A DNA stretch of 63,452 nucleotides from Candidatus Omnitrophota bacterium (GCA_049642015.1 JBAROI010000095.1:1-63452), one strand, 5' to 3'. Positions 4,332 to 52,032 are shown, numbered from the stretch's first letter. The notes: a model not told the origin generated them from the sequence alone. Translations and numbers: made by a program.

Positions 4332-4343
4332 AATGCCTGCCTC

Positions 4344-6874: not shown

Positions 6875-6889
6875 TTTAAATATCTTTCT

Positions 6890-8119: not shown

Positions 8120-8140
8120 TATATTGCCTACTTTCGCACA

Positions 8141-8323: not shown

Positions 8324-8485
8324 TATAAGCTCCTCATTAATGTAAGCATTACATAAAAGCAAACTAACCCGTTTCAAAATCTATTGATTTGATACGAATT
8401 AGTACTAATTAATACGAATTAATACGCATTTGTAAGTATACGGATAAATTGGACGGAGTCAAGTGATCTGACGGATCTAACCCGG

Positions 8486-10841: not shown

Positions 10842-10870
10842 GTGTGGAATTACGGATCGGAGGAGCGGGT

Positions 10871-11689
10871 TCAGAAGCGGGTAACCCAGTTGTCGTCTAT
10901 CGTGATTCCCTCTTTTGAAATTTTTATGTTCTTTATAACTCCATCGGCAATTTTTCCGAGCTTTTTTCTATTCACGATAAAGTCCAGCATCTCGGCCCTG
11001 CCGGTCCATATGGCAATGGCCTTATCCGACTCAAAGCTCTTTTTATCGCCTTTTCTGAGCACGCCGACAAAGAGGGTTTTATTTCCCTCCGTGACCTTTA
11101 CCCAGGCTTCACCGCGCGCTTCAAGCGTCAGCTCCACGGTCGGCTTTTTAGCCGCCTGAGTCGTTCTTCCCTCACGGGTAGACGCTGCCGGAGCTTTTTC
11201 TTTTTTCACTACCGGCGCAGTTGTAGCTTTTGCTTCAGTAACAGTAGCCGCTCTTCTTTGTCTGGCTTCAACAAATTTCGACTTCAGCCTTCCGGCAAGC
11301 ACGAATATAAGGACTAAAAGGACTACTGAAAAAAGTCCTATCAGCACCATCTGGATCGTTTTTTCCGGCATGGCAAAGGAGGGGCCTCTTTCTATCGGCT
11401 CCTCCTTCATCTTGATGTCCGGATTGAATTCTGCCTTAGGAAGTTCTCCTGATAATTCGTCAAATTTTTTAAGAATATTTCCGGCATCCAGATTGAGAAA
11501 TATCGCGTATTTCTTTAAAAAACTCTTCACGTAAAGTTTGTTAAGCCTGCCGAACACGCCGCTTTCGATGTCGTTAATGACATTCAGGTGGATGCGGGAG
11601 CGCTCGTTCGCTTCTTCTACGCTGATACCAATCTTTTCACGGGCTTCTTTGTAGATCTTTCCTATTTCTTTAGCTTCAGGATTTATCAT
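10871..11689 (-). CDS. RodZ-like cytoskeleton protein (HTH + TM + DUF4115-like C-terminus)
   Basis: 272 aa. N-terminal XRE-type HTH (IGISVEEANERSRIHLNVINDIESG), a single TM (IQMVLIGLFSVVLLVLIFVLA), a low-complexity linker, and a C-terminal beta domain WVKVTEGNKTLFVGVLRKGD. Confidence 0.7.
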   Translation of the reverse strand: MINPEAKEIGKIYKEAREKIGISVEEANERSRIHLNVINDIESGVFGRLNKLYVKSFLKKYAIFLNLDAGNILKKFDELSGELPKAEFNPDIKMKEEPIERGPSFAMPEKTIQMVLIGLFSVVLLVLIFVLAGRLKSKFVEARQRRAATVTEAKATTAPVVKKEKAPAASTREGRTTQAAKKPTVELTLEARGEAWVKVTEGNKTLFVGVLRKGDKKSFESDKAIAIWTGRAEMLDFIVNRKKLGKIADGVIKNIKISKEGITIDDNWVTRF

Positions 11690-35076: not shown

Positions 35077-35104
35077 ATTATAGGAAAATCTACTTTTTTG
35101 TCAA
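35077..35104 (-). promoter_or_regulatory. predicted sigma70 promoter of groESL
   Basis: Minus-strand TTGACA (35104-35099), 16 nt, TATAAT (35082-35077), immediately upstream of CIRCE. Confidence 0.7.
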
Positions 35105-35155: not shown

Positions 35156-38100
35156 TTATGCGGCTTCGATGACCTGCCTCATGGTCGCGTACCTATCCAT
35201 CCGCCTGTCGTGGTCATACCGTTCAATGTTCGGGAGGAGTTTGAATATTAAGGGGCTGTTTGGCGCCGCGGATTCCGACCTCATTTCCGCGATATTTATC
35301 GCATCCAGCTCTTCTTTGGTAAAGCCGCTTAAGCGCCCTTTACTGATATAGCGGGCCAGGGTAATTGTCACTATCTCGGCAAGAGGATAATAATGGATCT
35401 TGCGGAATTCCTCTGTTCTCTGGATATATGCTAACTGGACATTATCCTTATTTCTGGCCCACGAAAGCTCGTCTTCAGCGCTCTCCTCGGCGAACACGAA
35501 GATCACGGCGTCCTCTTTCCTAAAGCCTTTTTCCTTCAGGCGCTCATCGATCGCTTCTGAAAGAGTTTGTTTGCTTCCCGGTATGACGATCTCCAGATTA
35601 TTTAGAAGTTTCTTGTAATTGTCGTCCCCTTTGAGGTCTTCCAGTATTCTGAAAATATTTACTGCCTCGTCGCTATCTATGCTCCTGTCAAAAGTCAGGA
35701 AGATCTTTTTCTTCAACGGGTCGATCTTTGTCCTCGAAAGCGTGCCGGAGACGACCATTTCCACAAGGTTTTTCGCCAGTTCATCCGGATCACTGACATC
35801 ACGCAGGAGGAATTTCAGGTCAGCTTCGGGCTTTTCTCCGGTATCGGGCATTTTCCTTATATTAATGGGAACGCTTGCTAATGCCTGTTCGAATTTTTCA
35901 TTATCTCTTAAGGCGTGCCCTGTAAACAGGCAAACCGGATCATACCCTTTGAGGTCAACGGCCTCGAGCTCTTCGCCTGCGGCTTCAACCTGGTATTGAT
36001 ACTGATCAACGATACCTGCCATATCTCTAAATCGAATTCTCGTATCAGCATCTTTGAAACAGATTCGGAATTTCTTATCGTGCCTCTGGCGTAAAATGCT
36101 ATCTTTCCCGGTGCGCCTGTACCAGGCGCTCGGTTCGGAGCCTTCTTCCGGCTCAAAGCCGTACTCTTTGCCAAGAAAATCAAGCGTAAGGGGATTGGAA
36201 AAACCCGGATGAATGCGCTTAACATCCGGGTACATGGTAAAGAACATATTCAAAAGCGGCCGGAGCAGGCCCTTTTCCTGCAGGTCCTCACTTATTAAAA
36301 TGCCCTTTAAGCCGTGCCGATCCTCATCGCCCTCGATCGGCACACTGTAGATCAACATATCCGGCGGCGTTCCTTTTGCCCTGGATATGCCCACTTGATT
36401 TAAAATTATCCCCTTCCTGCCATCCGACATCCGCTTAAACGGGGAAATTTCAAATGAATAATAAGCACCCTTCCGGGAAATTAAAACTCTGTCACCGCTA
36501 ACGGTTACTTCATCTTCCGGGAATCTAGCGCTCTCTCTATCTCCAGGCGAAGCAGCAAGCGCCTCTTCGAGGGGTGATTCTTTGACGGACGGTTCCTCGA
36601 CGGGTGGTTTTTTGACAGGCGGTTCCTTGGCAGGCGCTTCACCGCGCGTACCCTCTGTCAATTCTTTAGTCGCTTCGACCAGTTCTCTTCTTTTTTCTTC
36701 GTCCTTCTTCTCCCTGACCACTACTTCAACCGTCGCCCACAATATGGCCGTATCAGAACCGCTGTAATAAACATCAATAGTCAATATATATCCGCCTTTT
36801 TCACGGTCGGGCCTCCAGCCGCTCAATATCGCGCCGCAGCTGTATATAACGCCCGGTATCCAGAGATCATGTTCATTTTCCAGTTCGTATGGTTGGCCCT
36901 TCTCCGGCTTCAAGATCGGTTCGCTGATAAATTTTTTCCTGGGATCCTTATTGTCGGTCAAAAGCAGCCTTAAATCATAGTACTTATCCTCCCCGTCCAT
37001 GGCCGCGGCATGAACGAGCGTGAGATCGAAGCCATTTAATTCAATAAACTCCTCCGTGGGCACATTGGCTACATAAGCTGAAGGCCCCATCCAATGAAAG
37101 GGCGGAAGAGCCGTTAACTTATAAGGCCCGACGGTTTTCCATGTCCCGTACATGTCCCCTGAAGAATCAATCTCCGCTATCCACATCTGAGAATTGTGAT
37201 TCATTGAAGGCCGGAATAGGGCATACCATTTTCCGTTAGCAGGGTTACCAAAAGGTACAAAATTTTTGATATTCCCGGGCATATCAGTGATCAATTTCTT
37301 CAGTGGCTTCCATTCCCAATTAACTTCCGCGCTCTTTCCCTTTTCCAGTAGCTGAACGTTTTTCAAGAACTTATGTGAATCATGTTTTGTAACTGCGGAA
37401 AAGTATTGTCCGTCTCTTCTTACCGCCGTCAGGAAAACATAGACATATCTATTCTTTTCCATTTTGCCGTTAACTTCCTCCCATATTTCCCTCTCAATAG
37501 CGCGCGCGTCCTCAAGAGCGATGATCTCAGAATCTCTCTCGATCTTTGACATCACGCTTTGCCAATGTTCCACATCATCTCCTGTCGCATGAAGATAGTT
37601 GTACTGGGCATCCAGGTATTCCTTAGAACCGACATCTGAAAGCTGCGAACAAAGGCTTTCATCCTCGGGCATAAGCATCTTTTCGTCGAGCTCTTTAATT
37701 TCTCTTTTTTTACCCCCTTCTTCATCGCGCTCTTCGCCTTCTTTTGGGTCGCTCTTATCGTGGAGAAGGAGCCCTATCCAGGACTTTCGTAGCACGTCCT
37801 TTTTGCCGGGAATATTGATAGCGATCCTGTTAAAAAGCAGGCGCCTGCCGGCTAGAGCCAGAACTCCGGCGTTTAAGTTGTATTCCAGGCTTTTATCTCT
37901 CGGTTTCATCAAGGGGCCGTTCCTCTCCACTTTTCTAATTTCCATCTCTATCGGCAACTCGCCACGAAATTCTTCAAACATGGGATCCTTAAATTTTATC
38001 TTGTCCGGGGGAAACTCAGGGGGATACTTACCCTGGGGAGAAAAAGGCCTTATCATGCGGTCCCTTAATATCTTATCCTCTTCCATCAAATACTGTTTCT

Positions 38101-41100
38101 GATAGAGACGGAGAGCGTAATGTGCGCGCCACGCATCCTTCCATTTCCGTCCGACTTTATCATCATCGGGTATTCCGTATCTTTTCATTTTTTCCTTTAG
38201 ATATTCCTCGATCGCCTCTTCGCCGATCTTTCCCTCATATACAAGTTTAGATATAATATATTCAAGAAAGACCGACCTTCCTTCCCTGCTTTCCCTTATT
38301 TGTTTATCTATTAACGCGTGCGCCAGTTCATGAAGTTTCGCCATTTTACTGGCAATTTTATCATCCTTCTCTAATCGACTTGATGCTTCGTCTTTTTTAT
38401 TCGTACCCCCGAACGGCTTTAAAACGGCAACAAGGTTCCTCGCCCCTATCCCCTCTATGCCGTAATCGTTGGGCTCTATGAGAAAAGCTTCTCCTTTAAA
38501 GACCGAATTGATAAACTCATTAAGCTGTACATTGATCCCTTCGTGCGAAGTTTCATAAAAATTATCGAATATATCCGGTGATGCTCTTTTAACTCTTAAT
38601 TTTATCTCTATCGGTTTTCCTTCCGGGTGCGTGATATCCACGGCTTGAAAAATCAAAACTCCCTCGCTGCTTCCTTCACTATCGGGCACAAATGTTATAT
38701 TGGAGAGGATCTTCCACTTGCCGATAAGGCCGGTAAGGAATGATTTGACGCACGGCGCTTTCGAAATAGCTTGTTGAATGGCGGAAAGAATAGCTTGGTT
38801 GTCCAGAATTTCTTTTGTAATGTCGAATTCTTTCAGTATTGTTTTGCGAAAAACACCATATACTACTTCTGCTTCTTTCACAACAAATGCCTTTAGGGGC
38901 TGGCCGATTATGCTTCCGGTTTTAGGGTCATATTTGTGCCAGACAAGTATTATCCCGAAGTTCGGCACATTGACAAGGGTGCCAAGAACAAAAACATCTT
39001 CTCCCTTTTTGGCCAATTTCTTTCCGATGTAATGGCTTGTTTTTGACGCCCTCCCGCTCTTGTCCAGCTTGCTGACAACATAACTTGTCCCGTCCTCCCG
39101 CGGCTTGATCCATTCTTCTCCTAATTGCCATCTTTTGATATCCGCCCATCCCAGGGTGCGGTCTTTTGCAATTCCCGCATTCAAATTATCGCCAATATGG
39201 TAGTTCACTGTAATATGATCGATCACTTTGCCTTTATCCTCTACAATTCCCACAATACCGTGATTGGGGTCTTCGACAAACCGCAAGGTCATACCCGCCT
39301 TCTTTTTAAAATATGTGCTACTGGAAAGGCCCGGCGTCTTCTCTTTTCCGGTAATAACGTAGCTTTCTGCACTTGCCAGGATGATATCGACCCATTCAGA
39401 TGTAAATACGTCCCTGAGAAAATACCGCAAGGCTTGTCTAAAAGCCTCGACTTTGAGTTCTTCCGGTGGCGGGGGAATAGTGACTTCCGGTGTTCGCTCA
39501 TCGGCTTTCGGCGTTTTTTCCCGACCCTCAATATCCACATATGGCGTAGAATCATTTATAGCGGTTACGGTGTTAAGGTCAAATTCCACAACCTTCAATA
39601 GTGCTTTATGAAGAACTTTTCCGGCGAAATTTTTACGCCACACAGGCGACATGGTCTTTCTTACAACATCACGATCGATTTTATTCCTGAAATAAGCCCT
39701 TGTCGCGGTATCAACTTCATCTTCAGGGTCTATCAGAGCCATTGCTACGCACTCCGTCAGATCTATGGCAAAATCCCGGGAAGGCAGATGAAGTCCGGGT
39801 TCAGGGAGATCTACTTCGACAAGTTTGGTATCCGGCTCGACCCCGGCCCTTAGGAATACGCCGTTTCCATTTACAAATATCCTTTTCACTTCTCGATTGT
39901 AGGCATCTTTTATTGTTTCACCCTCCGAAAGATCTTCAGGAAGCCACCAGTCTATCCCGCCTTCAAATTTCTCGAATGGTTTTTTCAGCTGAGATGCCGG
40001 AGTCAATACAACCACGTCAATATCCGAATGTTTCTTTAGATCCTTATCCTTTTTTCGGCGGTTATATAAAGAAGCCGCCGTGCTGCCAATGATAATACCT
40101 ACCGCGCCGTGCTCTTTCAATATCCTGTCAGCTTCTTTTAACCCCTCGAGACCTACTTTGGCCTCAGGTGGAACGGGGTCTTCTTTTTCGATCCTGATTG
40201 TAATCTTCATCAGCTGTTTAAGGGTCATCTTTAACTTCACATTGAGTTCTTCTATCATCTCCAGGCTCAATCGAGGACCTCCCATACCCATGCCCATCAT
40301 ACCAAGGAAGCTAAACACTATGATGCCTACCATAATCAACGGAACAATCACCCAGGAAGCCCCTATCCCCTGTCCCAGCTGCAACCCCACCTCGGCAGCT
40401 TGAACTAGCCGCGGAGTAAGAAGACCGGCAAGCAGGATCCCCAGGATCGTCCTGCCGGACAATAGCTTTTGTAAAGGACCCGGGACATGCATGCTGAAAG
40501 TGGTCCACCCGTTTTCTATCGAATAGGCCAGACTCCCGCCTGCCTTCTCGGCGGTCTCCCTAGCTATGGCTATGCCCCTTCCCGTGCAGGAAAAGGCCCG
40601 GGTAGCAACGGCATCCCCGTCAAAACGTCCTTCCTCGACCAAGGATACTATGTCAGGAGACGATACATAGCTTTCCTTTATTCTGGCAAGGTGATACTGG
40701 TCAGGTACTGAATCGTTACTGACGGCGATCTTGATGTTTTGATCGTTTATTTCCCACTGTATTCTGAGCTTCGTTATCTTATATCCCTCTTCAAGGTACT
40801 GTCTTACTATTTTATATTTTTCTTCACCCTTCATATCTTTTCTTGCTATAAAGCTCTCGACGCTTCCGTATTTATCCGTAAAACGCATGAATCCTTTTGC
40901 CTTCATCGCATTCATCATGATCTCATGGAAAAACGAATCAAGGGCCACTTCCGCATCTTCACTATACCCGTGCTTCGAAAGAAGTGATCCCAGCGCCACT
41001 CGTAACCCAAATATCGTCTTATACTTTCCGCCGGAAAGATCCGCAAAAGAGACCGCCCCCGAATCAGTAATTTCTATAACCGGCTCCCCGGGAACATCTT

Positions 41101-44100: not shown

Positions 44101-47100
44101 ATAGTTTTACATCCGGATGGACGGAAGGATCAAGATGAATACCCTGGCGTGCAAGCTTTTCTTCGATCAAAGAAATAGGGATCCTTTTTACTCTTTTGAA
44201 AACGCTGCGTGCTATATCTCCTCCCGTGGTAAATTCATGAGTTTCCACATCGTAAAGGTCTGTTCTTTCAAGGAGCCAGTCAACAACTTCCATCTGCTTT
44301 TCAGGAGAAAATGAAAAAAGTGGCGTTTCATCTTCGTCTACCAGTCCGATAATAGGAAGCAAGTGCTCCCACACGTTGACGCCTGAACGCTTAAACAGGT
44401 ATTCAGCATTGCCAAGCCTGCTAAATATCGTCTCTGGATTGATATCTCCAAACCATTCAGTGAACGCGTGTTCGATGCTCCCTGGAAAATCTTTGCGTGA
44501 ATGGAAAAAATAACTAAAAGCACTAAGCCAAAAACGGTCTTTTAACGCACTTTTTTCGCCTCTGTCTTCGCATAACCATCCCCAGACCAAAGAGCTTATT
44601 TCCGGACCTGCCTCTATTAGAAGATCAAACATAGCATGCACAACAGGAGAATGCTGATATGAATCGAGATCGAGCACGGTTATCCTGTCAGCAAGAGATA
44701 ATAGCTCCCTTACGTCTTCAGGTGTGAGGTTATTTACGATTTCGAGTTCACCTAAAATGCCTCCCAGGATGCTCTGTTGCGCTTGTAGAATCGCACTGGG
44801 CCCCTCGTTTCCTACAAAACTGTCCCAGGAGACGGCATCCATGACTGCCATCTGCTTTTTCCACTTCTCAAGCCCTTCTACCGCGGACCTAACGTCTTTG
44901 ATCCTTCCCGGATCCTGTTTGACCATTTCCGTCATTTTTTCTTCCAAAGTATAAGGTATAACCCCTAGTAAAAACTTATTCATGAGCCCTTGGAAGAATG
45001 ATTTAAGACGAGGCTCCATCTCATAAGGAAGGCGCGCCTTAAGCGCGGAAAGTATATTATCAAGGCCGATCCTTTCGGCAATGGCCCGCTCTGCTTCACG
45101 GTTCAAGTTGCCTTCCATGGTACCTAATTCAAAGAATATCCGGAAAAGTTCTATCATACTCTTATCTTCCCCCGCAACGCGGGAGGCCTGCTCTTCAAAA
45201 GCCGACCGAATTCGTCTCTGCGCCTCTTCGTCGTGCGCAAGTGGACGTTCCTCAGGGCTTCTCTCTTCTGTCGGAAAAACATACATTATGAGAAAATCAA
45301 GCGCGAGAAACAGCTTTTCCGGCGAATCGGACCTTCTTATAAGTTCCAGTGCGGTATCAATGTCCTGTAATCTTAAATTAGGATGAGGATATTGCGGATA
45401 AACCCAATCTTTGAACTCTCTGTTCCTTGTCTTGAGATTTACCGCTTCTTTGAACTCTTCGCTGAATTCTGTCGGATCATTGTAGTAAGAAGGCCAGTGA
45501 AGACCGTTAACTTGTTTTTCCAGCTTCCTTATCCTTTCATCGGTCAACGGGTGAGAAAGCATGGTGAGGATCATTTGAAGCGCTGACTGTCCTCTTTCTC
45601 TTTCACGAAAGGCCTTCATCATGTCAAGCGCGCCCCTTACTGTATAACCCGCTTTATCTATTGTCGAAAGTGACTCTATATCCGCCTGGTATTCGTCGGC
45701 ATGCCGCCCTTGTAATTTTTGTATAGCGTCCCACGAATGGAAATCCCTTGGGAACGTGAGCTCTTTTCCTTCAAAAATGTCGTCAACAAACTGGTCAACA
45801 TGCGCAAGCTCATGCGCTAATATGTGCGCAAAACTGTCAACCGTCCCTCCGTTATCTACCACGAACCTGATGAGTCCCATGTTGATGCATACCGTGTTTG
45901 AATAAGGCAGGACAAATCCCCGCGGATAAGAATAACCGTCATCCAGTATCACGAGGTTAAAATCATCCGGATCGTATCCCCTGGCTTTTAAGGCCCTGTC
46001 AAAAACCTCCCGCGTATCGCTGTAAAACGCCTTGAATCGTTCATCTGATGGGTCAACGGTCCCCATGGTAGAATCCCAGTTCTCAATAAGCTGACCGTAA
46101 AAATCATTATTCGCAAGAATAGTCTCAAGCTGTTTTTCCAGGAGCTTCACCTGATCAGGATTCTGCCTCTTCCATTCATCCAGTTTATCGAGCGGTATGT
46201 TTTTACGCGAAGCAACCATCCGCCAGAGGATATCCTCATCAGCAAGCTTGTAACGATATTCTTCCGCGCCGGTTTGTTTCCTGGCGGTCCACGCGCGGTA
46301 GATCCTGTAAGCAAGGTACGCGAAAAGAAGCCCGCCCACGACTATAGCGAAAGTGGTCCACGAAAAATCCAATGTCTGCTCGCCGAGAAAGAGAGGCATG
46401 GCAAAAAATGCGGAGCTGTCTTTTTTGGGCGGAGTTGAGAGCTCTCCCGCCTTAAGGGCTAAATGGATACTGTTGAAAAGTCTGACTGCGGGAATGTCCT
46501 CCTCTTCGATCTTGCCTGTCTCACAAAAATTACGGGGGATATATGCGACTCCTCTTTCGCTATAATTATGTCCTTCGGAAAAATTGATCCACACATGTCC
46601 GGGGTCGTTCCCCAGTTTATAAATATCTACGCTACGATACTCAGGAAATCGGCTTTGGACCCGCTCCGCGGTAACGGACCCGTAATAAGCAATAACAAAG
46701 TTGTCCCTTTCAAGGCCCAGCATCTTTACGAGTCCTTCAACGGCGTTAAAAGTGTCTTCGCTGTCAACTTTAAGGATCAATTTCGCGCCCTTACCCTTAA
46801 GAAACCACTTCAAATCGATGTGCCCGCTATCGTCAATGTAATCTAAGATCTCCTCTATTGGGCCGCTATATAGATCAAGAATTGAGCAAAAGATGAAAAA
46901 GTAGTACGGATTAAAAACAAACAGCTTTCGCAAGGCATCATGATCAATGGAAGTATCTTTCAGAGCATTTAAAGACCGCTGAACGCGCATTTTTGTTCCT
47001 GAAAGCACGTCCACGGCGCGCCACACGTCCCAGGGTTTCTTCAAAATCGCCTCTTTTAAAACATCGATTCCGATAAGCTCGGAATTGGCAAGTATCCTTA

Positions 47101-50100
47101 TAAACTGTTTATGCCCGGAAAGTCTGGAGATCAAAAGATCAAAGTCGCCTCTCTTGCCCTTGAAAAACGGTTCAAGTTCATTCTTTAATGCTTCAAAGGC
47201 CGCGTCACCGGACCTGAAGTGTTTTTGTCTCTTTCTTTTTTCGGGTGAAGGTTTTGCTTTTTCGCGGTCTTTCGTTTTTTCCTCATTCAACACTTGCCTG
47301 AATATTTTTATCGCCGGTGCCGGACTTACGTTCATCGTCCTGGCCATGGTTTCAATTACACCTTTTGCCTCTTCGATGTCCTTACGAAAAGCGTCTTTCC
47401 TTTGTTTCTCCGGCAAGTCAAGCCTGAATGTATCGTAATCAAAAAGTGTGAGCGGATTGTGATTATGCGGAATGTTAAAAACGCCGCCGTACTGATTGAA
47501 CGTGCAGCCATTAAACTCATTATGGAGGATATGCAGGAACAGGCCATACCTTGCCGCAGCGCCTTTAAGAACTTCCTGGGCCATTTCTTCATACGGAACT
47601 GCTTTTCCATCTTTCGTCGCTTTCCGGACATCACCGTTGCTGTCATAATCGACTTTGTACCCGTAATATTCAAAAAAGGACCTCAGGTCAAGCTTTCCAT
47701 ATACTTCGCTCATCCTCTCGTTGCAGGGAACATCATACACGTATATAACGGGCTCCCTTTCTTCCGGATGTCCTTTTTTGGGAATACCTATAAAGTCCAG
47801 ATAATCTTCAGTCGGGATCAGTTTCACCTGGGGCGGCATTTCAAGTTCTTTGGGGACTCTTCTGGCCGTGGGCAATTTTTTGGCCCCTTTCTTTTCTTTA
47901 TCGGCCACAATTGCAGGAAAAGCCAGGACATCCGCCTCTACTACCGGCCTCCTTATCATGTCTATCCGGGCTCCGTGCTGTTTTGCAAAAGTCATAGCGG
48001 GGTTACCGGCTTTTTCAAGGCGTTCGAACGCTTCTCTGAGTACAACATCAACTTCTATGGAGGCTTCCGATCTGGGTAGTCCCCCATGCAGGAGATGAAC
48101 GCCACTGCCCTTTCTCACTCCCACCAGGACCCCGGACTGATTAGTTGCCATGGAAGCTCCTGTTCCTTTATATACAACCATATGTCCCTCCGATAAGTAA
48201 TAATGATGGGCCCTATTGTGCTCATCGCTGAACGAAAAGGACAAGGGGTTTTTCATGGGGAAGTAATACCTTTTCCCTATTTTCTTTATGCGTCCGGCGC
48301 GCACTTCTCTTTCGAGAAGCTCCCTTGAAATAATACTTATGCTCTTTCCACTTGTCTCTTCGTCCTTCTTTGTGTTTATTTCTACGGGAACATAAAAATA
48401 GTTCCCCAGCATCCTGAGTTCCGCGACCATTCTTTTCATTTCATCTTTGGTTCTTTCTTTAGAGGTCACGGCAGGAATATACTGGCCCAGTATCGAAGAA
48501 AATGACAATTGATACATCTCAAGGGTAGGAGCAAGCTCAAGGGCTTTTCTGAATTCTCCGGCTGATCCTACGGCCTTTGCGGTCTCCTGGAGGGCCGTCC
48601 CGACGCTGTTAACATTAAATGCTTTTTGTTCCGCAAAAATGGCCGTTTGGAATTCTATCGCCGCTTCAAGGGCATCCGGAAGATCTCTTTTCGATCTTGA
48701 CGCTTTTATTGCCGCGGGAGCGGCGTATCTCAGGTAAAAGTGATGAGCTGGATTGACGCTATGAGGAGTATTGGTCTGTGGGATCATTTTGAGCAATCTC
48801 TGGAGAACCATCTCGAGCTTGTCAATCGACTTTGCAGCCTCGGCTGCATGTATAAGGCCGTCATCCAAAAAACGGCCTATTTCTAATTCACCGCGGATCG
48901 CTTCCAGATCGATCAGAAATTTCTTAACAACTTCGATAGCTTTTAAAAAATTCTCTTCGGATTTTGATGTCACTGTTGCCGCCGGAACACCACATTTGAG
49001 AAAGATCTCCGGATTCACACCTTCTTTGCAGAGTGAATCAGCGGCCTCCAAGGCCGCTATAAGATCTTTTTCAGTTCTTACACATGTACTGCCCCAGAAA
49101 ACCCCGCGCTCAAGAACCCCCTCACCGGCAAAAATCCTTTCCGAAACTGTTATCACGAGCTTTTCCATAGACTCGAGGACTTTTATGAATCCTTCTTCCG
49201 ACTTGATCGCATTTATTGCCGCCGGGAAAACACGCTGAATGGTAATATCAGAAATGTTAGCCCCTGCCTTTTCATAAATGTTAGAAGTAAATGTCCGGAT
49301 GGCGTCGAGAAGTCTTTCGAGGCCTTCCCTTGACCGGGAGAACATTGCCGCCTGTATAATGATAAAATCGAACTGGGAAGGAACTTCTTTTCCGGCAAAA
49401 AGAGACGCTTTCATCTCTTCTATTTTTGGCCTGAAAAGGGCCACCCTTTCTTCATCCGGCATATCTTCCCATTTTCTTTCCTCAGCCGCCGCAGAAGCCC
49501 TTTTCCTCTCTTTTAGAAATACAGTAGCACGTGTACCTATCACCCCTTTACGGTCGTCTTCAATGCTTTTCTTTTCGTATCCCCACTCCCCTTTGATCAG
49601 TTTTATTCCTTGGTCACGGATATTCTCCTGATCGCCATTCACTGCCGCTACCATGCGCTTATCCGCGTCACCGGGCTTTGCCGCGTCAAAAACATCGAGC
49701 CTTTCCGCCTTTCCCTTGCCATCTAACTTTATGTGCATAAAAACAGGGAGAGAAAGATCAAACTTATTCCCGTGCTCTAAAGCATTTTTAAGCAGCTCTT
49801 TGATGGGAAAGACAATATCATGAGTATCTTTACTGCTGAATTTCTTACTTAAGTCTCCGGCAAGAAATTCGAGTTGTTTTCTTATCTTTTTGTACGCGTT
49901 GTCAATATCCACAAAGTTATCGAATCTCAAAGAGATGAGTTTGCCCGACTCTATCGCTGCTATCACATCCTTAACAAGGCCCCAGCTCCCCTTCGTATCC
50001 AGCGGAACCTTGAATTCGGTTAATTCGCTCGCACCCGTTTCCTCCATCATACGTTTTTTAAGCAGGTCCGGCCGGGAGCCGTATTCAACATCCCTAATGA

Positions 50101-51955
50101 GCTTTACGGCGGGGTGATCCGCTTCAGCAACGGGCCTACTCATGGAAGGCCTGTACGGGTCGGCTGCACTTAGCGCTTTATAAAGAACTTCGATCCTTGG
50201 GTCATCCTTCCTGTCGTGGAAATACCCTTCAAGGAACACGCGGATAGGATCAACCCCGGTCCGTTCGAGCAGCATTTTAAAAGATGCGTGTTTTACAAAA
50301 AAATCTTTATAATGCCGGATCGCCTGGAAGACGCCAATAAACCGGCAGGCGATCATCTTTTTGGGGTTTGAAATTCTGTCGACACGTTTCGATGTCTCAA
50401 AATCTTTCATCCGCTGTTCAGGCCCCTGTTCGCCCTCAATGAGCAGACAATTGTTCTGGTGGGGCCATTTGAGAAAATAACCTTTATCGTTGGCCCGCCT
50501 GACCTGCACGCCGTGATTGAGGGCAAAATTTCTAACTCTTTCGATAACCTCTGGGATGTTTTCGCTTATACTTTCATCCGGTCCTCCCGATCTTTCGGCA
50601 GCCTTTAAACGATCCGCTTCTTCTTTTACCTCCGGAAGGTCTTCGAAGAGTAATTGTTCCAGCGTGATCTCGGGGGCCTCGGGCACGAGCATGGCCACAA
50701 AATGTCCCTTTTCTTCTCCAAGCTGAATGTCCGGGTAAACGCCTCGAGCCAATCGTAAAGCCCTTGATATATCGTCTTCGAGGGCCGGCTTCATGATATC
50801 AAACTCATTTTTTGCCCCATCCTTGGACATCGCCCCTAAAATATGTTTAGCTTCTACGAATTCTATCTTTCCCTCGTCATCCGCAACCCAGGTTTTAGTG
50901 GGGCCGTCCTTGAATTCTTCCGAGGAAGGGGGAAATATACCGTGGTACGTCGTGCCTTTTAATTTTACGTAACGGAACGTAACGTTATTTACCGTTATCG
51001 GCTCTTTAAGTTTGAGCCACATGGACCTTGCGGCAAAAAGATGATCCGGGTCCATGTTTTGCCGGTCCCACGAAAGGCATTGCTGGATCCTTTTAAATAT
51101 TCCCGGGTCATGTTCTTCCAAAAGTTTCCTTGTTTCTTCGTCCCATTCTATTATCTTTGAACGCAGCGGCTGGGGCCTGATCACTTTCCACAAGGACCTG
51201 GCGATCTCCATGTAAACATTATTGACATCTTTTACTGGAAGCCATAACGCGTCTTTCTTCTTTAGCAGCCCTACTTTGCCTCCCAGCGCTTTATGCGCTT
51301 CATCATCCGGATTATAAAGCACTATTCTTTTAAGGTTTTCTAGATCGTAGTCATATAATTTTCCGGAACTTCTTAATCGTCTTAGTATTGTTGCGTCCGA
51401 AAAAATAAACTTGATGTATGTTATGAATCGCTTTGCCAGGTATTTATCAAACCCTCTTATTTCAATGTCGATCTCGGGATCATCCGGGTTTTTCTTCGGG
51501 AAACGCAACCGAAATCTTTTCTCTTCTACCTTCTCTAAAGAAACAGATTTATTCTTTGCGTCGACAACGGCATTGTATTTGTTTACGGGACCTCCCGCTT
51601 TATCCACGACTGAACATGGAATAATCCATTTTTCGGCCTTTTCATCGTATTCTTTGTTTTCAAAATCAAGAACGATGAACTGCCCATCAAGAGCCGGAAG
51701 CGTAAGCCTAAGTTTGAAATCCTCCTGCTTCTCGAGCGACTCTACGATGCCCTTCGTGTAGAACTTCAGCATCATCTCATGTGTTATTGTCTGGCTAACG
51801 ATAGGATTAAAAGCGGATTGGACTTGAAGACAGGTATTGTTTTTCGATGTGAAGAGATCCGGGTTTGCCGATGAGATGTTATTTATAGTGAAAAGACACA
51901 CTATTACGATAGATATGATCTTAATCCAAATAGTGTGCCTTTTTTGCCAAGCCAT
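35156..51955 (-). CDS. giant (5,599 aa) membrane-anchored multidomain protein of unknown function
   Basis: Uninterrupted 16,800-nt ORF. ATG at 51955 lies 8 nt after AGGGGGT. N-terminal TM anchor. Recognisable modules are listed as separate 'other' features below. No alternative long ORF exists on any other frame of this interval. Confidence 0.9.
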   Translation of the reverse strand: MAWQKRHTIWIKIISIVIVCLFTINNISSANPDLFTSKNNTCLQVQSAFNPIVSQTITHEMMLKFYTKGIVESLEKQEDFKLRLTLPALDGQFIVLDFENKEYDEKAEKWIIPCSVVDKAGGPVNKYNAVVDAKNKSVSLEKVEEKRFRLRFPKKNPDDPEIDIEIRGFDKYLAKRFITYIKFIFSDATILRRLRSSGKLYDYDLENLKRIVLYNPDDEAHKALGGKVGLLKKKDALWLPVKDVNNVYMEIARSLWKVIRPQPLRSKIIEWDEETRKLLEEHDPGIFKRIQQCLSWDRQNMDPDHLFAARSMWLKLKEPITVNNVTFRYVKLKGTTYHGIFPPSSEEFKDGPTKTWVADDEGKIEFVEAKHILGAMSKDGAKNEFDIMKPALEDDISRALRLARGVYPDIQLGEEKGHFVAMLVPEAPEITLEQLLFEDLPEVKEEADRLKAAERSGGPDESISENIPEVIERVRNFALNHGVQVRRANDKGYFLKWPHQNNCLLIEGEQGPEQRMKDFETSKRVDRISNPKKMIACRFIGVFQAIRHYKDFFVKHASFKMLLERTGVDPIRVFLEGYFHDRKDDPRIEVLYKALSAADPYRPSMSRPVAEADHPAVKLIRDVEYGSRPDLLKKRMMEETGASELTEFKVPLDTKGSWGLVKDVIAAIESGKLISLRFDNFVDIDNAYKKIRKQLEFLAGDLSKKFSSKDTHDIVFPIKELLKNALEHGNKFDLSLPVFMHIKLDGKGKAERLDVFDAAKPGDADKRMVAAVNGDQENIRDQGIKLIKGEWGYEKKSIEDDRKGVIGTRATVFLKERKRASAAAEERKWEDMPDEERVALFRPKIEEMKASLFAGKEVPSQFDFIIIQAAMFSRSREGLERLLDAIRTFTSNIYEKAGANISDITIQRVFPAAINAIKSEEGFIKVLESMEKLVITVSERIFAGEGVLERGVFWGSTCVRTEKDLIAALEAADSLCKEGVNPEIFLKCGVPAATVTSKSEENFLKAIEVVKKFLIDLEAIRGELEIGRFLDDGLIHAAEAAKSIDKLEMVLQRLLKMIPQTNTPHSVNPAHHFYLRYAAPAAIKASRSKRDLPDALEAAIEFQTAIFAEQKAFNVNSVGTALQETAKAVGSAGEFRKALELAPTLEMYQLSFSSILGQYIPAVTSKERTKDEMKRMVAELRMLGNYFYVPVEINTKKDEETSGKSISIISRELLEREVRAGRIKKIGKRYYFPMKNPLSFSFSDEHNRAHHYYLSEGHMVVYKGTGASMATNQSGVLVGVRKGSGVHLLHGGLPRSEASIEVDVVLREAFERLEKAGNPAMTFAKQHGARIDMIRRPVVEADVLAFPAIVADKEKKGAKKLPTARRVPKELEMPPQVKLIPTEDYLDFIGIPKKGHPEEREPVIYVYDVPCNERMSEVYGKLDLRSFFEYYGYKVDYDSNGDVRKATKDGKAVPYEEMAQEVLKGAAARYGLFLHILHNEFNGCTFNQYGGVFNIPHNHNPLTLFDYDTFRLDLPEKQRKDAFRKDIEEAKGVIETMARTMNVSPAPAIKIFRQVLNEEKTKDREKAKPSPEKRKRQKHFRSGDAAFEALKNELEPFFKGKRGDFDLLISRLSGHKQFIRILANSELIGIDVLKEAILKKPWDVWRAVDVLSGTKMRVQRSLNALKDTSIDHDALRKLFVFNPYYFFIFCSILDLYSGPIEEILDYIDDSGHIDLKWFLKGKGAKLILKVDSEDTFNAVEGLVKMLGLERDNFVIAYYGSVTAERVQSRFPEYRSVDIYKLGNDPGHVWINFSEGHNYSERGVAYIPRNFCETGKIEEEDIPAVRLFNSIHLALKAGELSTPPKKDSSAFFAMPLFLGEQTLDFSWTTFAIVVGGLLFAYLAYRIYRAWTARKQTGAEEYRYKLADEDILWRMVASRKNIPLDKLDEWKRQNPDQVKLLEKQLETILANNDFYGQLIENWDSTMGTVDPSDERFKAFYSDTREVFDRALKARGYDPDDFNLVILDDGYSYPRGFVLPYSNTVCINMGLIRFVVDNGGTVDSFAHILAHELAHVDQFVDDIFEGKELTFPRDFHSWDAIQKLQGRHADEYQADIESLSTIDKAGYTVRGALDMMKAFRERERGQSALQMILTMLSHPLTDERIRKLEKQVNGLHWPSYYNDPTEFSEEFKEAVNLKTRNREFKDWVYPQYPHPNLRLQDIDTALELIRRSDSPEKLFLALDFLIMYVFPTEERSPEERPLAHDEEAQRRIRSAFEEQASRVAGEDKSMIELFRIFFELGTMEGNLNREAERAIAERIGLDNILSALKARLPYEMEPRLKSFFQGLMNKFLLGVIPYTLEEKMTEMVKQDPGRIKDVRSAVEGLEKWKKQMAVMDAVSWDSFVGNEGPSAILQAQQSILGGILGELEIVNNLTPEDVRELLSLADRITVLDLDSYQHSPVVHAMFDLLIEAGPEISSLVWGWLCEDRGEKSALKDRFWLSAFSYFFHSRKDFPGSIEHAFTEWFGDINPETIFSRLGNAEYLFKRSGVNVWEHLLPIIGLVDEDETPLFSFSPEKQMEVVDWLLERTDLYDVETHEFTTGGDIARSVFKRVKRIPISLIEEKLARQGIHLDPSVHPDVKLLIYFYSKGGIADERIFRRIVLEEDLSERDLLVLYEHIKRFGSDPKSVLYKIVQEVPLHYYAARHKNKEKDELWNFYILPLQIQVFSIRITGKKMPAREFDGYYGPGGVSEVDSPILEVFFPREYFPGEVSRQRDLGDPTSSVDVTRFNRSRHVSEDEVRGFVGIIRDSQRSFDEILNDLARIVPPSPYRNFILYCLLVEKKLRDEWGVRIEDDAIYDAASISGKIASLDESKKQQFLELLTQRIIPLLSKDKKIEEENLGVMANVAYKSTKDDARIAEASIIAAHDGEFASYPGLYRAEPGGILAQFDLMVPELASGILAEMLTKPIETKDKIRLISGLLARPSNTRDNHLREVLEKGEPSIRDIDEALPLFYNPHIREKFALRALEMEREESPEKFEALEGELERVTHYFPYLCFNRDDILLNVQSCALTPEDGDLINSLMLQHPDNLRKKTQSQFTFYEDAIREAIKAMNPSDKKDLLLWFMGLRDEKPYNMVYFEYEMRVKLDSLKDRFSGKEGKHYKGVGTSELDDFFVSFLYGEKGILADDNASREFLDALFDAVLPGKTGSIFKTIYDSVFRKRDTDTTTDELRREEVILAMIKKLSQLSRAEGLSGEEKEAAVIRIFLESLGVVGVKLGQFLVSSGLIDEGPIKKALQGLKDSAKPLNKGVVFDAIKKFFGGFYKKFRSLGEEVGSASIKSVYKALLKNGRKGVIKVKRPEAQKKIESDLAFFRRALGDIRDDLAQRDISLPDDMFERIEEMINEEMDFNREAKNQKRLARNLRTRFHPWRGLKRFVKAVAMYFTGKWNYLPQSGSYRFEVPQAIDAGNNSIMIEEFVDGVKLSDMEYIPVEIRRAIANELLRQIFVDGFYHSDPHSGNIFLKDDGKTIVFIDLGSCSEINDENQRNLRDIINGVKNNDLSTIVSAVRTFSPVSEELKSEIDTGVIKSKGSAVNKILKLFNILEKHKIRIPKQLLSIFRFFGSAGYLFEESVPETRGPPSAEQEDVPGEPVIEITDSGAVSFADLSGGKYKTIFGLRVALGSLLSKHGYSEDAEVALDSFFHEIMMNAMKAKGFMRFTDKYGSVESFIARKDMKGEEKYKIVRQYLEEGYKITKLRIQWEINDQNIKIAVSNDSVPDQYHLARIKESYVSSPDIVSLVEEGRFDGDAVATRAFSCTGRGIAIARETAEKAGGSLAYSIENGWTTFSMHVPGPLQKLLSGRTILGILLAGLLTPRLVQAAEVGLQLGQGIGASWVIVPLIMVGIIVFSFLGMMGMGMGGPRLSLEMIEELNVKLKMTLKQLMKITIRIEKEDPVPPEAKVGLEGLKEADRILKEHGAVGIIIGSTAASLYNRRKKDKDLKKHSDIDVVVLTPASQLKKPFEKFEGGIDWWLPEDLSEGETIKDAYNREVKRIFVNGNGVFLRAGVEPDTKLVEVDLPEPGLHLPSRDFAIDLTECVAMALIDPEDEVDTATRAYFRNKIDRDVVRKTMSPVWRKNFAGKVLHKALLKVVEFDLNTVTAINDSTPYVDIEGREKTPKADERTPEVTIPPPPEELKVEAFRQALRYFLRDVFTSEWVDIILASAESYVITGKEKTPGLSSSTYFKKKAGMTLRFVEDPNHGIVGIVEDKGKVIDHITVNYHIGDNLNAGIAKDRTLGWADIKRWQLGEEWIKPREDGTSYVVSKLDKSGRASKTSHYIGKKLAKKGEDVFVLGTLVNVPNFGIILVWHKYDPKTGSIIGQPLKAFVVKEAEVVYGVFRKTILKEFDITKEILDNQAILSAIQQAISKAPCVKSFLTGLIGKWKILSNITFVPDSEGSSEGVLIFQAVDITHPEGKPIEIKLRVKRASPDIFDNFYETSHEGINVQLNEFINSVFKGEAFLIEPNDYGIEGIGARNLVAVLKPFGGTNKKDEASSRLEKDDKIASKMAKLHELAHALIDKQIRESREGRSVFLEYIISKLVYEGKIGEEAIEEYLKEKMKRYGIPDDDKVGRKWKDAWRAHYALRLYQKQYLMEEDKILRDRMIRPFSPQGKYPPEFPPDKIKFKDPMFEEFRGELPIEMEIRKVERNGPLMKPRDKSLEYNLNAGVLALAGRRLLFNRIAINIPGKKDVLRKSWIGLLLHDKSDPKEGEERDEEGGKKREIKELDEKMLMPEDESLCSQLSDVGSKEYLDAQYNYLHATGDDVEHWQSVMSKIERDSEIIALEDARAIEREIWEEVNGKMEKNRYVYVFLTAVRRDGQYFSAVTKHDSHKFLKNVQLLEKGKSAEVNWEWKPLKKLITDMPGNIKNFVPFGNPANGKWYALFRPSMNHNSQMWIAEIDSSGDMYGTWKTVGPYKLTALPPFHWMGPSAYVANVPTEEFIELNGFDLTLVHAAAMDGEDKYYDLRLLLTDNKDPRKKFISEPILKPEKGQPYELENEHDLWIPGVIYSCGAILSGWRPDREKGGYILTIDVYYSGSDTAILWATVEVVVREKKDEEKRRELVEATKELTEGTRGEAPAKEPPVKKPPVEEPSVKESPLEEALAASPGDRESARFPEDEVTVSGDRVLISRKGAYYSFEISPFKRMSDGRKGIILNQVGISRAKGTPPDMLIYSVPIEGDEDRHGLKGILISEDLQEKGLLRPLLNMFFTMYPDVKRIHPGFSNPLTLDFLGKEYGFEPEEGSEPSAWYRRTGKDSILRQRHDKKFRICFKDADTRIRFRDMAGIVDQYQYQVEAAGEELEAVDLKGYDPVCLFTGHALRDNEKFEQALASVPINIRKMPDTGEKPEADLKFLLRDVSDPDELAKNLVEMVVSGTLSRTKIDPLKKKIFLTFDRSIDSDEAVNIFRILEDLKGDDNYKKLLNNLEIVIPGSKQTLSEAIDERLKEKGFRKEDAVIFVFAEESAEDELSWARNKDNVQLAYIQRTEEFRKIHYYPLAEIVTITLARYISKGRLSGFTKEELDAINIAEMRSESAAPNSPLIFKLLPNIERYDHDRRMDRYATMRQVIEAA
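36715..37465 (-). other. giant ORF: GH130-like (5-bladed beta-propeller glycosidase/phosphorylase-like) domain (aa ~4830-5080)
   Basis: NGKWYALFRP, IAEIDSSGD, HWMGPSA, LVHAAAMDGEDKYYDLRLLLTDNKDPRK, EPILKPEKGQPYELEN, IPGVIYSCGAIL, VYYSGSDTAILWATVE. The block order is as in GH130 proteins (GkyymlyR .. yHGv....Y..G..lLD..dP .. pil.P...yE .. nVvF.cG .. iYYGaaDt). Confidence 0.6.
39950..40140 (-). other. giant ORF: minimal nucleotidyltransferase-fold motif (aa ~3940-4000)
   Basis: GIIIGSTAASLYNRRKKDKDLKKHSDIDVVVL fits hG[GS]-x(9-25)-D-h-D-h (DID at aa 3978-3980). It is preceded by two TM helices at aa ~3838-3890 (nt 40285-40444). Confidence 0.5.
40490..40975 (-). other. giant ORF: GHKL / HATPase_c-like module 2 (aa ~3660-3822)
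   Basis: N-box FFHEIMMNAMKAKG (Asn at aa 3682) and G2-like TGRGIAIARETAEKAGGSLAYSIENGWTTFSMHVP. Confidence 0.6.
41370..42240 (-). other. giant ORF: UbiB/ABC1 (AarF)-family atypical kinase domain (aa ~3240-3530)
   Basis: GVKLGQFLVSSGLI...LQGLKDSAKP, GSASIKSVYKALLKNGRKGVIKVKRPEAQKKIESDL, MDFNREAKN, FYHSDPHSGNIFL, VFIDLGSC. These are all the family signature blocks, in the canonical order. Confidence 0.8.
45506..46003 (-). other. giant ORF: peptidase M48-like zinc metalloprotease domain (aa ~1985-2150)
   Basis: NTVCINMGLIRF...FAHILAHELAHVDQ (HELAH at aa 2048-2052; nt 45800-45814), a downstream E..AD (HADEYQADIESL), and LSHPLTDERIRKL (aa ~2134). It follows a TM helix at aa ~1866-1888 (nt 46292-46360). 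Confidence 0.75.
48370..49360 (-). other. giant ORF: array of about 8 helical repeats with ~40-aa period (aa ~865-1195)
   Basis: Recurring pattern h-P-A-A-x4-S/K-x-E-x-F/L-x-K-A-L-E. Examples: VFPAAINAIKSEEGFIKVLESMEKL; CVRTEKDLIAALEAADSL; VPAATVTSKSEENFLKAIEVVKKF; LIHAAEAAKSIDKLEMVLQRLLKM; AAPAAIKASRSKRDLPDALEAAIEF; ALQETAKAVGSAGEFRKALELAPTL. Confidence 0.6.
49555..49858 (-). other. giant ORF: GHKL / HATPase_c-like module 1 (aa ~700-800)
   Basis: N-box-like IKELLKNALEHGNKF (Glu at aa 727) and a downstream glycine-containing segment DQGIKLIKGEWGY...GVIGTRATVFL. There is no adjacent H-box. Confidence 0.5.
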
Positions 51956-52003
51956 ATATATTTACCCCCTAATCTGCCTTTTTATTAATATAACATTAAT
52001 ACT

Positions 52004-52032
52004 ATAATAGCATATAGGGAGTGTTAAGTCAA
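52004..52032 (-). promoter_or_regulatory. predicted sigma70 promoter of the giant ORF
   Basis: Minus-strand TTGACT (52032-52027), 17 nt, TATTAT (52009-52004). It sits in an AT-rich 167-bp spacer, about 50 nt upstream of the ATG. Confidence 0.55.

Follow-up and report, generated by a model that had tools for sequence, protein, structure and literature searches.

We analysed a 63,452-nucleotide (nt) stretch of DNA from a Candidatus Omnitrophota bacterium (GCA_049642015.1, JBAROI010000095.1:1-63452; hereafter the window). An uninterrupted open reading frame (ORF) on its minus strand (35156..51955) starts with ATG, encodes 5,599 amino acids (aa) plus a stop codon and takes up 26% of the window; we call its product the giant. 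A first-pass annotation, made from the sequence alone, had described a 16.8-kb ORF encoding a membrane-anchored mosaic of enzyme families that normally occur as separate proteins. The ORF was recovered at exactly these coordinates as a single frame, it is present in other assemblies, and the proposed anatomy proved largely right. The giant belongs to an Omnitrophota protein family that had so far gone unremarked, built from a conserved head, a conserved tail and reshuffled enzyme cassettes between them. It is also a small, differently built variant of the modular giant proteins already known from Omnitrophota.

Eight housekeeping genes nearby served to train a codon-usage model, which favoured the giant's frame in 36 of 36 windows of 900 nt. 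Because its own frame wins every one of them, the ORF reads as native coding sequence from end to end. Scaffold_901 of ENA assembly ERZ23498717 is 100% identical to the giant's DNA across 13,638 nt, and the gene called there encodes 4,049 aa up to the contig end. Two contigs from NCBI metagenome-assembled genomes (MAGs) and two Logan contigs match at 99.9-100%, and an NCBI protein fragment (P0001) spans aa 2712-4254. All joints of the giant up to aa 4254 thus recur in other assemblies, which may stem from the same sample as the window. The last ~1,350 aa are known from this assembly alone, together with their collinearity with an orthologue, L008.

Modules of the giant

The features of the locus are listed below, with the evidence for each in brackets; L008 is an orthologue and P0002 a stand-alone homologue, both described further on.

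52004..52032, minus strand: promoter-like TTGACT-17-TATTAT with an upstream TG extension (consensus match only)
51965..51970, minus strand: AGGGGG ribosome-binding site, about 9 nt before the ATG (read from the sequence)
35156..51955, minus strand: the whole giant ORF
51506..51955, minus strand: A1, the family leader, aa 1-150 (at the extreme N-terminus of about 30 protein clusters; AlphaFold2 (AF2) model)
50066..51088, minus strand: A2, an atypical protein-kinase-like cassette, aa ~290-630 (AF2 and Foldseek)
49511..49978, minus strand: GHKL1, a divergent HATPase_c_2 domain of RsbW/SpoIIAB type, aa 660-815 (N-box ELLKNALEHGN)
48371..49363, minus strand: about seven tentative helical repeats of ~43-48 aa, aa 865-1195 (periodicity, recurring motif)
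46301..46366, minus strand: hydrophobic segment TM2, aa 1864-1885 (Kyte-Doolittle 1.73)
45506..45838, minus strand: M48-like zinc metalloprotease core, aa ~2040-2150 (HELAH at 2048; EYQAD at 2088, in ExxAD context)
41144..43555, minus strand: cassette C, helical N-domain plus UbiB/ABC1 kinase, aa 2801-3604 (end-to-end match with P0002)
41336..42238, minus strand: UbiB/ABC1 atypical kinase domain, aa ~3240-3540 (PF03109, TIGR01982, motifs)
40469..41086, minus strand: cassette D, GHKL2, aa 3624-3829 (N-box HEIMMNA, G2 box GRGIAIA)
40295..40450, minus strand: paired hydrophobic helices, the hairpin, opening cassette E, aa 3836-3887 (hydropathy)
39518..40276, minus strand: nucleotidyltransferase (NTase)-like cassette, aa 3894-4146 (IIGS, HSDIDV, FEGGIDWW)
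38738..39517, minus strand: β-rich second half of cassette E, aa 4147-4406 (no family match)
38048..38731, minus strand: cassette F, small HExxH domain, aa 4409-4636 (HELAHA at 4542)
36644..38026, minus strand: cassette G, GH130-like, aa 4644-5104 (NCBIfam, Pfam on the orthologue, PDB profile search, Foldseek)
36521..36643, minus strand: Pro/Glu/Lys-rich linker, aa 5105-5145 (read directly; L008 has 440 other residues instead)
35834..36520, minus strand: H1, aa 5146-5374 (common to the orthologue L008 only)
35159..35833, minus strand: H2, the family C-terminal α/β domain, aa 5375-5599 (ends ...RYATMRQVIEAA-COOH; C-terminus of 13 proteins)

The modules named in the first-pass annotation fared unequally in the hidden Markov model (HMM) and structure searches: support was strong for UbiB and moderate for the M48 and GH130-like modules, while the two GHKL modules and the NTase stayed at the level of motifs and sub-threshold scores. 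The UbiB/ABC1 kinase, which had been called complete, is strongly confirmed. It matches PF03109 with an E-value of 4e-38 (131.4 bits against a gathering score of 22.9), its motifs are intact (KLGQ at 3252, GSASI of the A-rich loop at 3310, EMDFNREAKN at 3381, DPHSGN at 3489 and IDLG at 3507), and ABC1 and COQ8 entries in the PDB match it. The domain shares all signature motifs and the membrane association of UbiB and COQ8; it differs from them in lying inside a protein of 5.6 thousand amino acids (kaa), after a helical domain of about 440 aa. The same helical domain occurs in P0002, a complete stand-alone 869-aa gene that is 31% identical to cassette C end to end. Against TIGR01982 the domain scored 153 bits (E 1e-44; cut-off 487.55), and against NF003404 it scored 95, with a cut-off of 667. 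A ubiquinone-pathway UbiB orthologue was rejected as an identification, since 153 bits falls far under the equivalog cut-off of 488.

The M48 zinc protease that had been placed around HELAH at aa 2048 was moderately supported as a predicted core by its motifs, by PF01435 (30.9 bits, gathering score 20.3, the match being confined to profile positions 137-184) and by PDB entry 3c37 (E 0.0011). The second HELAH, at aa 4542, belongs to the small cassette F and is conserved in two distant homologues: HEL.HA, GLIGKW, NPYGI.G and HYA.R are all kept in L008 and in P0073, both described further on. Pfam and PDB searches with cassette F gave no match.

For cassette G, the GH130-like assignment holds moderately well at the family level. 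The NCBIfam mannobiose phosphorylase models match with an E-value of 1e-7, far below their cut-off. The giant's own cassette has no Pfam match; that of the orthologue L008 reaches PF04041 with 27.2 bits (gathering score 26). A profile of the two sequences matched PDB entry 9fj8 (E 0.0018), including the GH130 C-terminal motif. In Foldseek 3WAS and 4UDK led, from a poor AF2 model (predicted local distance difference test, pLDDT, below 50; template-modelling scores, TM-scores, 0.16-0.20). This model, which covers the C-terminal 1,199 aa with a pLDDT of 49, backs nothing beyond the GH130 lead and a Rossmann-like tail. The Pro/Glu/Lys linker that follows cassette G is evident by eye in the translation.

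The N-terminal 650 aa, which had been judged unassignable, were resolved into the family leader and an atypical kinase-like cassette, A2. An AF2 model of aa 1-660, built from a 36-row alignment, had a mean pLDDT of 86.9 and a predicted TM-score (pTM) of 0.76. Foldseek returned 17 PDB matches to A2 at E<=1e-3, all with a kinase fold (SelO/YdiU, WaaP, Bud32/PRPK) except for the top match, 6iii, an uncharacterised protein. From this model, A2 is predicted to adopt a bilobal protein-kinase-like fold. Its likeness to SelO/YdiU, Bud32/PRPK and WaaP comprises the fold match itself (Foldseek E 3e-5 to 1e-3, probability 1.0) and retention of the β3 lysine, the αC Glu-like NE, the catalytic-loop Asn and the DFG-like Asp; the corresponding motifs are VKLKG at 330, NEF at 382, PHQNN at 498 and KDFE at 517. 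A2 differs from these kinases in that the HRD aspartate is replaced (W-P-H-x-N-N in the giant; the family consensus is P-H-x-x-N after W/Y-P) and in a sequence identity of only 9-13%. The A2 HMM also weakly touches the catalytic loop of the giant's own UbiB domain. With A2 beside UbiB, the giant therefore would have two kinase folds, not one.

Both proposed GHKL modules are recognisable by motif and fall short by score. GHKL1 carries the N-box and matches PF13581 at E 0.0011 (19.5 bits, below the gathering score of 27.4). PF13581 is also matched by 10 of 23 GHKL1 homologues, with no competing family recurring, and the best PDB match is the RsbW-like Rv1364c (E 0.13). GHKL2 has an N-box and a G2 box, and scores 17.6 bits against PF02518 (E 0.005, gathering score 26.4). 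The G1 glycines are absent from both. The helical repeats, first counted as about eight of ~40 aa, appear as about seven of ~43-48 aa; they are suggested by a periodicity of z = 2.9 at an offset of 48 aa, a recurring AA..KS.E.F..LE and a match to P0095 in several stretches.

The nucleotidyltransferase motif was upheld at the level of residues: those fitting G[SG]...DxD...acid (G-S, D-I-D and FEGGIDWW) are invariant in 16 homologues. In Pfam, NTP_transf_2, DUF2204, MdcG and NTP_transf_6 appeared only at E 0.05-0.2 (the first two at 0.05-0.08), and a profile of the cassette found no solved relative in the PDB. The cassette occurs at 17 metagenome loci, both as stand-alone ORFs of about 250 aa and within other large proteins.

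By hydropathy, the giant has hydrophobic segments at aa 9-27, 1864-1885, 3836-3854 and 3869-3887. The first corresponds to the N-terminal transmembrane anchor that had been placed at aa 8-30 (AF2 helix, aa 3-30), the second to the helix placed at aa ~1866-1888, and the last two to the hairpin.

The giant thus holds at least nine different cassettes, and no family dominates by copy number. Self-BLAST revealed no internal duplication, nor did HMM searches with the GHKL1, A2, NTase and F cassettes turn up extra hidden copies of these within it. PADLOC and PHROGs scans of the giant gave only kinase-type matches, single-sequence PDB searches gave only ABC1/COQ8 entries and one M48 entry, and a word-indexed homology search with aa 3620-4640 returned only the giant's own fragment.

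The gene lies between housekeeping genes, as the first-pass annotation had it: coaX, birA, uvrB, nadC, valS and others upstream, and groES, groEL, ribBA, ribD and others downstream. Its own near-consensus promoter and ribosome-binding site were likewise found as described. The ORFs annotated in the window are housekeeping genes, or signalling genes in the low-GC first 9 kb, and none among them that flanks the giant is a secretion, pilus, glycoside-hydrolase or mobile-element gene. Directly after the giant's stop codon lies the groES promoter, a perfect sigma-70 consensus (TTGACA-16-TATAAT, 35077-35104, minus strand), with no terminator-like hairpin between the two. The first 9 kb (1-9000) have a GC content of 0.32-0.42, compared with about 0.49 elsewhere, and code for three histidine kinases (two with a HisKA_7TM sensor region) and a GAF-HD(HD_5) protein; this may be a signalling island of different origin. 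Another ORF (20970-23624, minus strand) encodes an 884-aa fusion of DHH/DHHA1, two CBS domains and a poly(A) polymerase/CCA-adding head domain. At the uvrB/nadC junction, ENA scaffold_901 (L001 1109-1210) and the window (55706-55760) conflict over about 100 nt: the two BLAST segments share sequence on the window side, while on the L001 side a gap separates them. This discrepancy between assemblies does not concern the giant.

A family with a common head and tail

An exhaustive HMMER search with aa 1-1200 of the giant gave 87 clusters, which separated into independent modules. Matches to aa 1-150 (A1) were always N-terminal, and matches to aa 660-815 (GHKL1) were separate from them. Matches to aa ~230-630 (A2) lay at any position in large proteins, or within proteins as short as 580-660 aa. 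The two ends were tested with profile HMMs, a head HMM for the first 175 residues and a tail HMM for the last 235. The giant itself matches the head at aa 4-153 (E 1e-64) and the tail at aa 5374-5599 (E 2e-73), with QVIEAA as its C-terminus.

Both modules are present in 13 proteins, of 646, 741, 842, 1374, 1378, 1890, 2709, 3119, 3488, 3834, 3859, 5599 and 6938 aa. In all of these the head begins within the first 51 residues, and the tail extends to the last residue (in P0091, to the penultimate one). Full-length members terminate in Y-x-x-x-[KR]-x-x-L-x-[AS]-A, with one exception that has a single extra Leu; several further large matches have no significant tail score, yet end in the same terminal sequence. 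The members have unrelated interiors. One member (P0040) has methyltransferase, HD and radical S-adenosylmethionine (SAM) domains, and the middles of the smallest members have no match anywhere in the giant. Only a few members have been given names, and each of these belongs to Candidatus Omnitrophota.

The leader consists of a basic N-terminus, a hydrophobic helix (aa 3-30 in the AF2 model), and then a conserved peptide and a small α+β domain. Residues A30 and P32 ('SANPD') are 100% conserved across the family. The peptide LQVQSxFxP (aa 43-51; window 51803-51829) is among the most conserved stretches of the leader, and it is the sole low-confidence, unstructured part of an otherwise confident AF2 model. 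Being conserved yet predicted to be disordered is typical of a recognition or processing motif.

At the other end, the core of H2 was modelled with a pLDDT of 63-89, and a profile of this module found no sequence match and no solved relative in the PDB. The family C-termini, -L-x-[AS]-A-COOH (window 35159-35200 in the giant), resemble the Ala-Ala end of the ssrA degradation tag. On one JGI contig (L026, Ga0366824_1011439, 163-11436), three tandem genes belong to the family, two of them separated by a radical SAM gene; an ORF there (1557-2444) encodes little beyond the C-terminal module, and it overlaps the stop codon of a 464-aa gene that lies upstream.

Gain, loss and reordering of cassettes

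One relative, L008, came out of a genome scan; it lies in Candidatus Omnitrophota MAG MFD13425 bin19. Its large gene encodes 3,859 aa and lies in the same synteny as in the window, coaX-X-groES-groEL. By position in the giant, the shared blocks are aa 6-625 (A, 46% identity), 3624-3829 (D, 64%), 3827-4406 (E, 74%), 4409-4636 (F, 31%), 4644-5104 (G, 48%) and 5146-5599 (H, 44%). Giant aa 626-3623, with GHKL1, the repeats, TM2, M48 and UbiB, are missing from L008. Blocks E to H are collinear in the two proteins, whereas D and E are exchanged: the order is E-D in L008, where GHKL2 (L008 1814-2020) follows the hairpin-NTase cassette, and D-E in the giant. L008 also has three unique inserts, none of which matches anything within the giant.

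The joints are sharp in both orthologues. Cassette D ends in GWTTFSMH[VI]PGP, followed by P..K.L[ST]GRTILG, and cassette F begins with GLIGKW. When the junction sequences were compared, no shared cleavage motif was found at the cassette joints. Since 3,000 residues, M48 and UbiB among them, are lacking from its orthologue, where GHKL2 and the hairpin-NTase cassette have also changed places, the giant's combination of domains is contingent. The enzyme mix is therefore probably not a dedicated system.

Two further relatives bear on how widely the pieces occur. Locus L028 (ENA ERZ23498717 scaffold_7717, 2-5878) aligns with giant aa 153-2093 at 72% identity, in one frame throughout. Because it spans these residues, the central region, with that around TM2, is not unique to this genome; no counterpart of TM2 was found in L008 by hydropathy. 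P0073 carries A1, GHKL, F, ABC1 and H2 in an order that differs from both the giant and L008. Its cluster corresponds to GenBank MDD5488487.1 and MDD4956307.1, proteins of 3,117-3,119 aa from Candidatus Omnitrophica named 'AarF/UbiB family protein'. The architecture of P0073 is identical to that of MDD5488487.1 (3,117 aa). MDD5488487.1 shares with the giant the leader, a GHKL1-type module, the small HExxH domain, an ABC1 kinase and the C-terminal domain (it ends in -FLEAA). It differs in that HExxH precedes ABC1, there is a single hydrophobic segment and the annotation is automatic. The A2 kinase fold, M48, NTase and GH130 were not found by BLAST in this cluster.

The first-pass annotation had allowed that homologues might reveal the pieces to be separate genes, artificially joined. 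This is partly borne out, as three cassettes do have stand-alone versions. They are known for cassette C (P0002) and for the NTase-like cassette (ORFs of about 250 aa, eleven of them complete from stop to stop and two cut by contig ends), and apparently also for cassettes in the first 1,200 residues, where proteins of 580-660 aa match A2 and proteins of 150-300 aa match GHKL1. These are distant homologues elsewhere, however, and do not indicate artificial joining. The neighbours of the stand-alone NTase genes are not conserved, and so give no functional hint. Three otherwise unrelated large ORFs on JGI contigs (L009, L010 and L011, 2,226-3,940 aa) also hold the NTase-like cassette. It is all that they have in common with the giant, and neither the head nor the tail module is present in them. 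In two of the three, His_Phos_1, PRTase-CE, NUDIX, LOG-like and acyltransferase domains occur as well; for L009 Pfam gave no match.

Probable arrangement at the membrane and place among Omnitrophota giants

Modular, transmembrane-anchored multi-enzyme giants have been described in Omnitrophota (West-Roberts et al. 2023, 10.1101/2023.11.21.568195; Nielsen & Lui 2026, 10.64898/2026.06.07.730766). The giant resembles them in its phylum and in the tiling of unrelated enzyme domains between transmembrane helices, and in the many stretches that are divergent or defy annotation. Among the domains of the described giants, HATPase_c is one of the most frequent, and the giant has its GHKL modules; paralogues within its family carry radical SAM, methyltransferase and HD domains, as the described giants do. 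It differs from them in size (5.6 kaa, compared with a defining length of at least 10-30 kaa) and in lacking SecA-DEAD, C39/S8, dockerin and TSP3 domains. It also differs in its surroundings, a conserved housekeeping coaX-groES locus without a type II secretion system or type IV pilus (T2SS/T4P) locus upstream, and without pilZ, glycoside-hydrolase or transposase flanks. Neither paper mentions ABC1/UbiB, M48 or GH130, and the shared head-and-tail frame is absent from the passages that were searched in them.

Archaeovorin-type giants, as West-Roberts et al. (2023) define them, have at least 30,000 aa, divergent SecA DEAD/preprotein-binding domains, numerous transmembrane regions, a T2SS/T4P-like locus upstream and pilZ/sugar-import genes downstream. 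The giant has 5,599 aa and four hydropathy candidates in 5.6 kaa, no Pfam or NCBIfam match to such SecA domains at E<=0.1 in any of its tiles, and no such genes on either side. We rejected the Archaeovorin and dockerin classes on size, SecA-DEAD domains and secretion/pilZ flanks. With the 'multi-enzyme metabolic cluster' class of Nielsen & Lui (2026) the giant shares a tiling of many enzyme families without a dominant one, a transmembrane helix or signal peptide, and an Omnitrophota host; at 5,599 aa it lies below the catalogue threshold of at least 10,000 aa. Two claims of the first-pass annotation fall here. It knew of no described protein that fuses such families, and both the MDD5488487.1 cluster and the described giants do so. 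It proposed an undescribed system packed into one polypeptide, and the combination is contingent, as L008 demonstrates, in a phylum whose modular giants are already described.

Polymorphic toxins and effectors also have a conserved targeting-like end and enzymatic cargo that is exchanged rapidly, with cassettes common to unrelated proteins. In the giant, by contrast, both ends are conserved, and there are many cassettes rather than a single terminal toxin. We rejected a polymorphic toxin because conservation lies at the C-terminus, where a toxin would vary, and because groES and groEL come next, with no immunity gene or secretion locus adjoining.

The reading that we favour, if by no wide measure of certainty, is that of an intact, tethered scaffold: a whole, membrane-held protein with independent cassettes, built on a fixed frame and filled by a lineage-specific draw from a shared pool. 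The sequences themselves show the fixed frame, the exchange of cassettes and the intact catalytic motifs; the one-piece state and the tethering are inferred. The frame would consist of a membrane-inserting leader with a conserved motif and a small domain at one end, and the C-terminal α/β domain at the other. Between them, recombination would gain, lose and reorder self-contained cassettes at short Pro/Gly-rich joints. In the giant, these cassettes would be, in order, a SelO/Bud32-like kinase fold, an RsbW-type GHKL, helical repeats, a transmembrane segment, an M48-like zinc protease, UbiB with its helical N-domain, a second GHKL, the hairpin with the NTase-like domain, the small HExxH domain and the GH130-like propeller. 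The protein would remain in one piece, tethered to the inner membrane by the leader and the internal helices. Nucleotide-using modifying enzymes (two kinase folds, two GHKLs and one NTase) and protease-like and glycan-active modules would thus be held at the membrane, with each cassette presumably acting independently. Their combination would be a draw from the shared cassette pool, and not a co-adapted pathway.

In this scaffold the giant's body probably faces the cytoplasm, because the UbiB, GHKL, NTase and kinase folds need ATP or another nucleoside triphosphate (NTP), and because family members with the N-terminal segment alone carry radical SAM, methyltransferase and UbiB cassettes. The two sides of the hairpin plausibly lie in the same compartment, since GHKL2 is found on one side of it in the giant and on the other in L008.

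Several observations weigh against an intact, cytoplasmic scaffold. The anatomy of the leader is export-like, with its basic N-terminus, hydrophobic core and invariant A-x-P; an export-signal-like leader would place the body outside the cytoplasm. The simple topologies of the giant and L008 disagree, because L008 has three hydrophobic segments and lacks that at aa 1864-1885. Papers on larger giants remark on the same topology paradox. About 40% of the protein has no family assignment (aa 1200-1860, 2150-2800, 4147-4406 and 5146-5374). L028, from the same metagenome as scaffold_901, contains two in-frame stops, which could mark a pseudogene, reflect a true split of the gene or stem from misassembly; relaxed selection is thus possible. 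As to the family, many head-only matches are fragments at contig ends, and tail-only and head-only architectures are under-sampled, because members were found via similarity to the first 1,200 residues of the giant.

The export-like leader leads to the strongest alternative, in which the giant is an exported effector carrier. The leader would be an export or sorting signal (Sec-type or family-specific) and the tail a docking or secretion domain. The interior enzymes would act on the surface, or would be sent into the host or prey of an episymbiotic or predatory lineage, where the target cell would supply ATP, NTPs and SAM; the turnover of cassettes would then reflect an arms race. SelO/YdiU-like kinase-fold AMPylases, NTases and zinc proteases are common effector activities. 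The signal-peptide anatomy with its invariant A-x-P, the conserved LQVQSxFxP that is predicted to be disordered, and the conserved ends around hypervariable cargo all fit such a carrier. So does the literature, which reads Omnitrophota giants as batteries for predation or effectors (10.1101/2023.11.21.568195; 10.1101/2025.01.14.632903). Nevertheless, we regard this as unlikely. Housekeeping genes flank the giant, in contrast to the very large giants, 13 of 14 of which lie beside secretion or pilus genes, and SecA-like, dockerin, adhesin and repeat domains were absent from the giant in the Pfam scan. The radical SAM cargo of a paralogue needs a cytoplasmically assembled cluster, and there is no conserved Tat motif. 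In addition, UbiB-family proteins normally act on the producer's own membrane.

The giant might instead be a self-processing polyprotein, as the first-pass annotation had also entertained. The M48-like or HExxH modules, or a host protease, would cut the joints and release the enzymes in fixed stoichiometry. The presence of two HExxH modules, the small one being kept in L008 and P0073, agrees with this idea, as do the sharp boundaries and the stand-alone cassette homologues. For other Omnitrophota giants, C39 and S8 peptidase domains have been put forward as agents of self-cleavage. Yet the joints have no common sequence motif, L008 has no M48 module, and the smallest family members (646-842 aa) have no protease domain detectable with Pfam, which together make a polyprotein quite improbable. 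We also know of no M48 enzyme that acts as a polyprotein-processing protease.

Finally, a chimeric assembly or a decaying gene full of non-functional domain debris, which could draw on the stops in L028, the single assembly for the last ~1,350 residues and the very different cassette content of the orthologues, is largely refuted and very improbable: 16.8 kb are open in one frame with native codon usage in every window, the joints to aa 4254 recur in other assemblies (on these grounds an assembly artefact was rejected), the order E-F-G-H is the same in L008, the UbiB, M48 and NTase motifs and the GHKL N-boxes are intact, and head and tail are conserved family-wide.

A bolder proposal goes beyond the tethered scaffold. 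The leader and the tail ending in -AA might together mark a dedicated, Omnitrophota-specific handling of arbitrary enzyme cargo, be it export, sorting, display, or controlled unfolding and degradation. We consider this doubtful, though worth stating for its consequences. If true, recombination would swap cassettes in and out of a natural 'plug-in' carrier, and the family would match polymorphic toxins in a two-ended form. The 10-150-kaa giants of the phylum could also have grown from this family as their founding frame.

Giant mosaic proteins, the hallmark oddity of Omnitrophota, have resisted analysis because of their size, because most of their sequence defies annotation and because assemblies usually break them into fragments. 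The family described here is a tractable, small-scale version, ranging from 646 to ~7,000 aa, with a fixed head and tail and clear cassette boundaries, and the syntenic pair of the giant and L008 displays the loss, gain and order swap of cassettes. It provides two HMMs for a census, defined joints at which to look for processing, and a leader motif with which to address export or cleavage. The combination of protease, kinase, ATPase, NTase and glycosidase is less significant, as it is not conserved even between orthologues. Through the family one could address the construction and evolution of such proteins, and the question of whether the enzymes in them act inside or outside the cell. The value of the giant lies in its compact, analysable frame for the modular proteins of Omnitrophota, and not in its particular set of enzymes.

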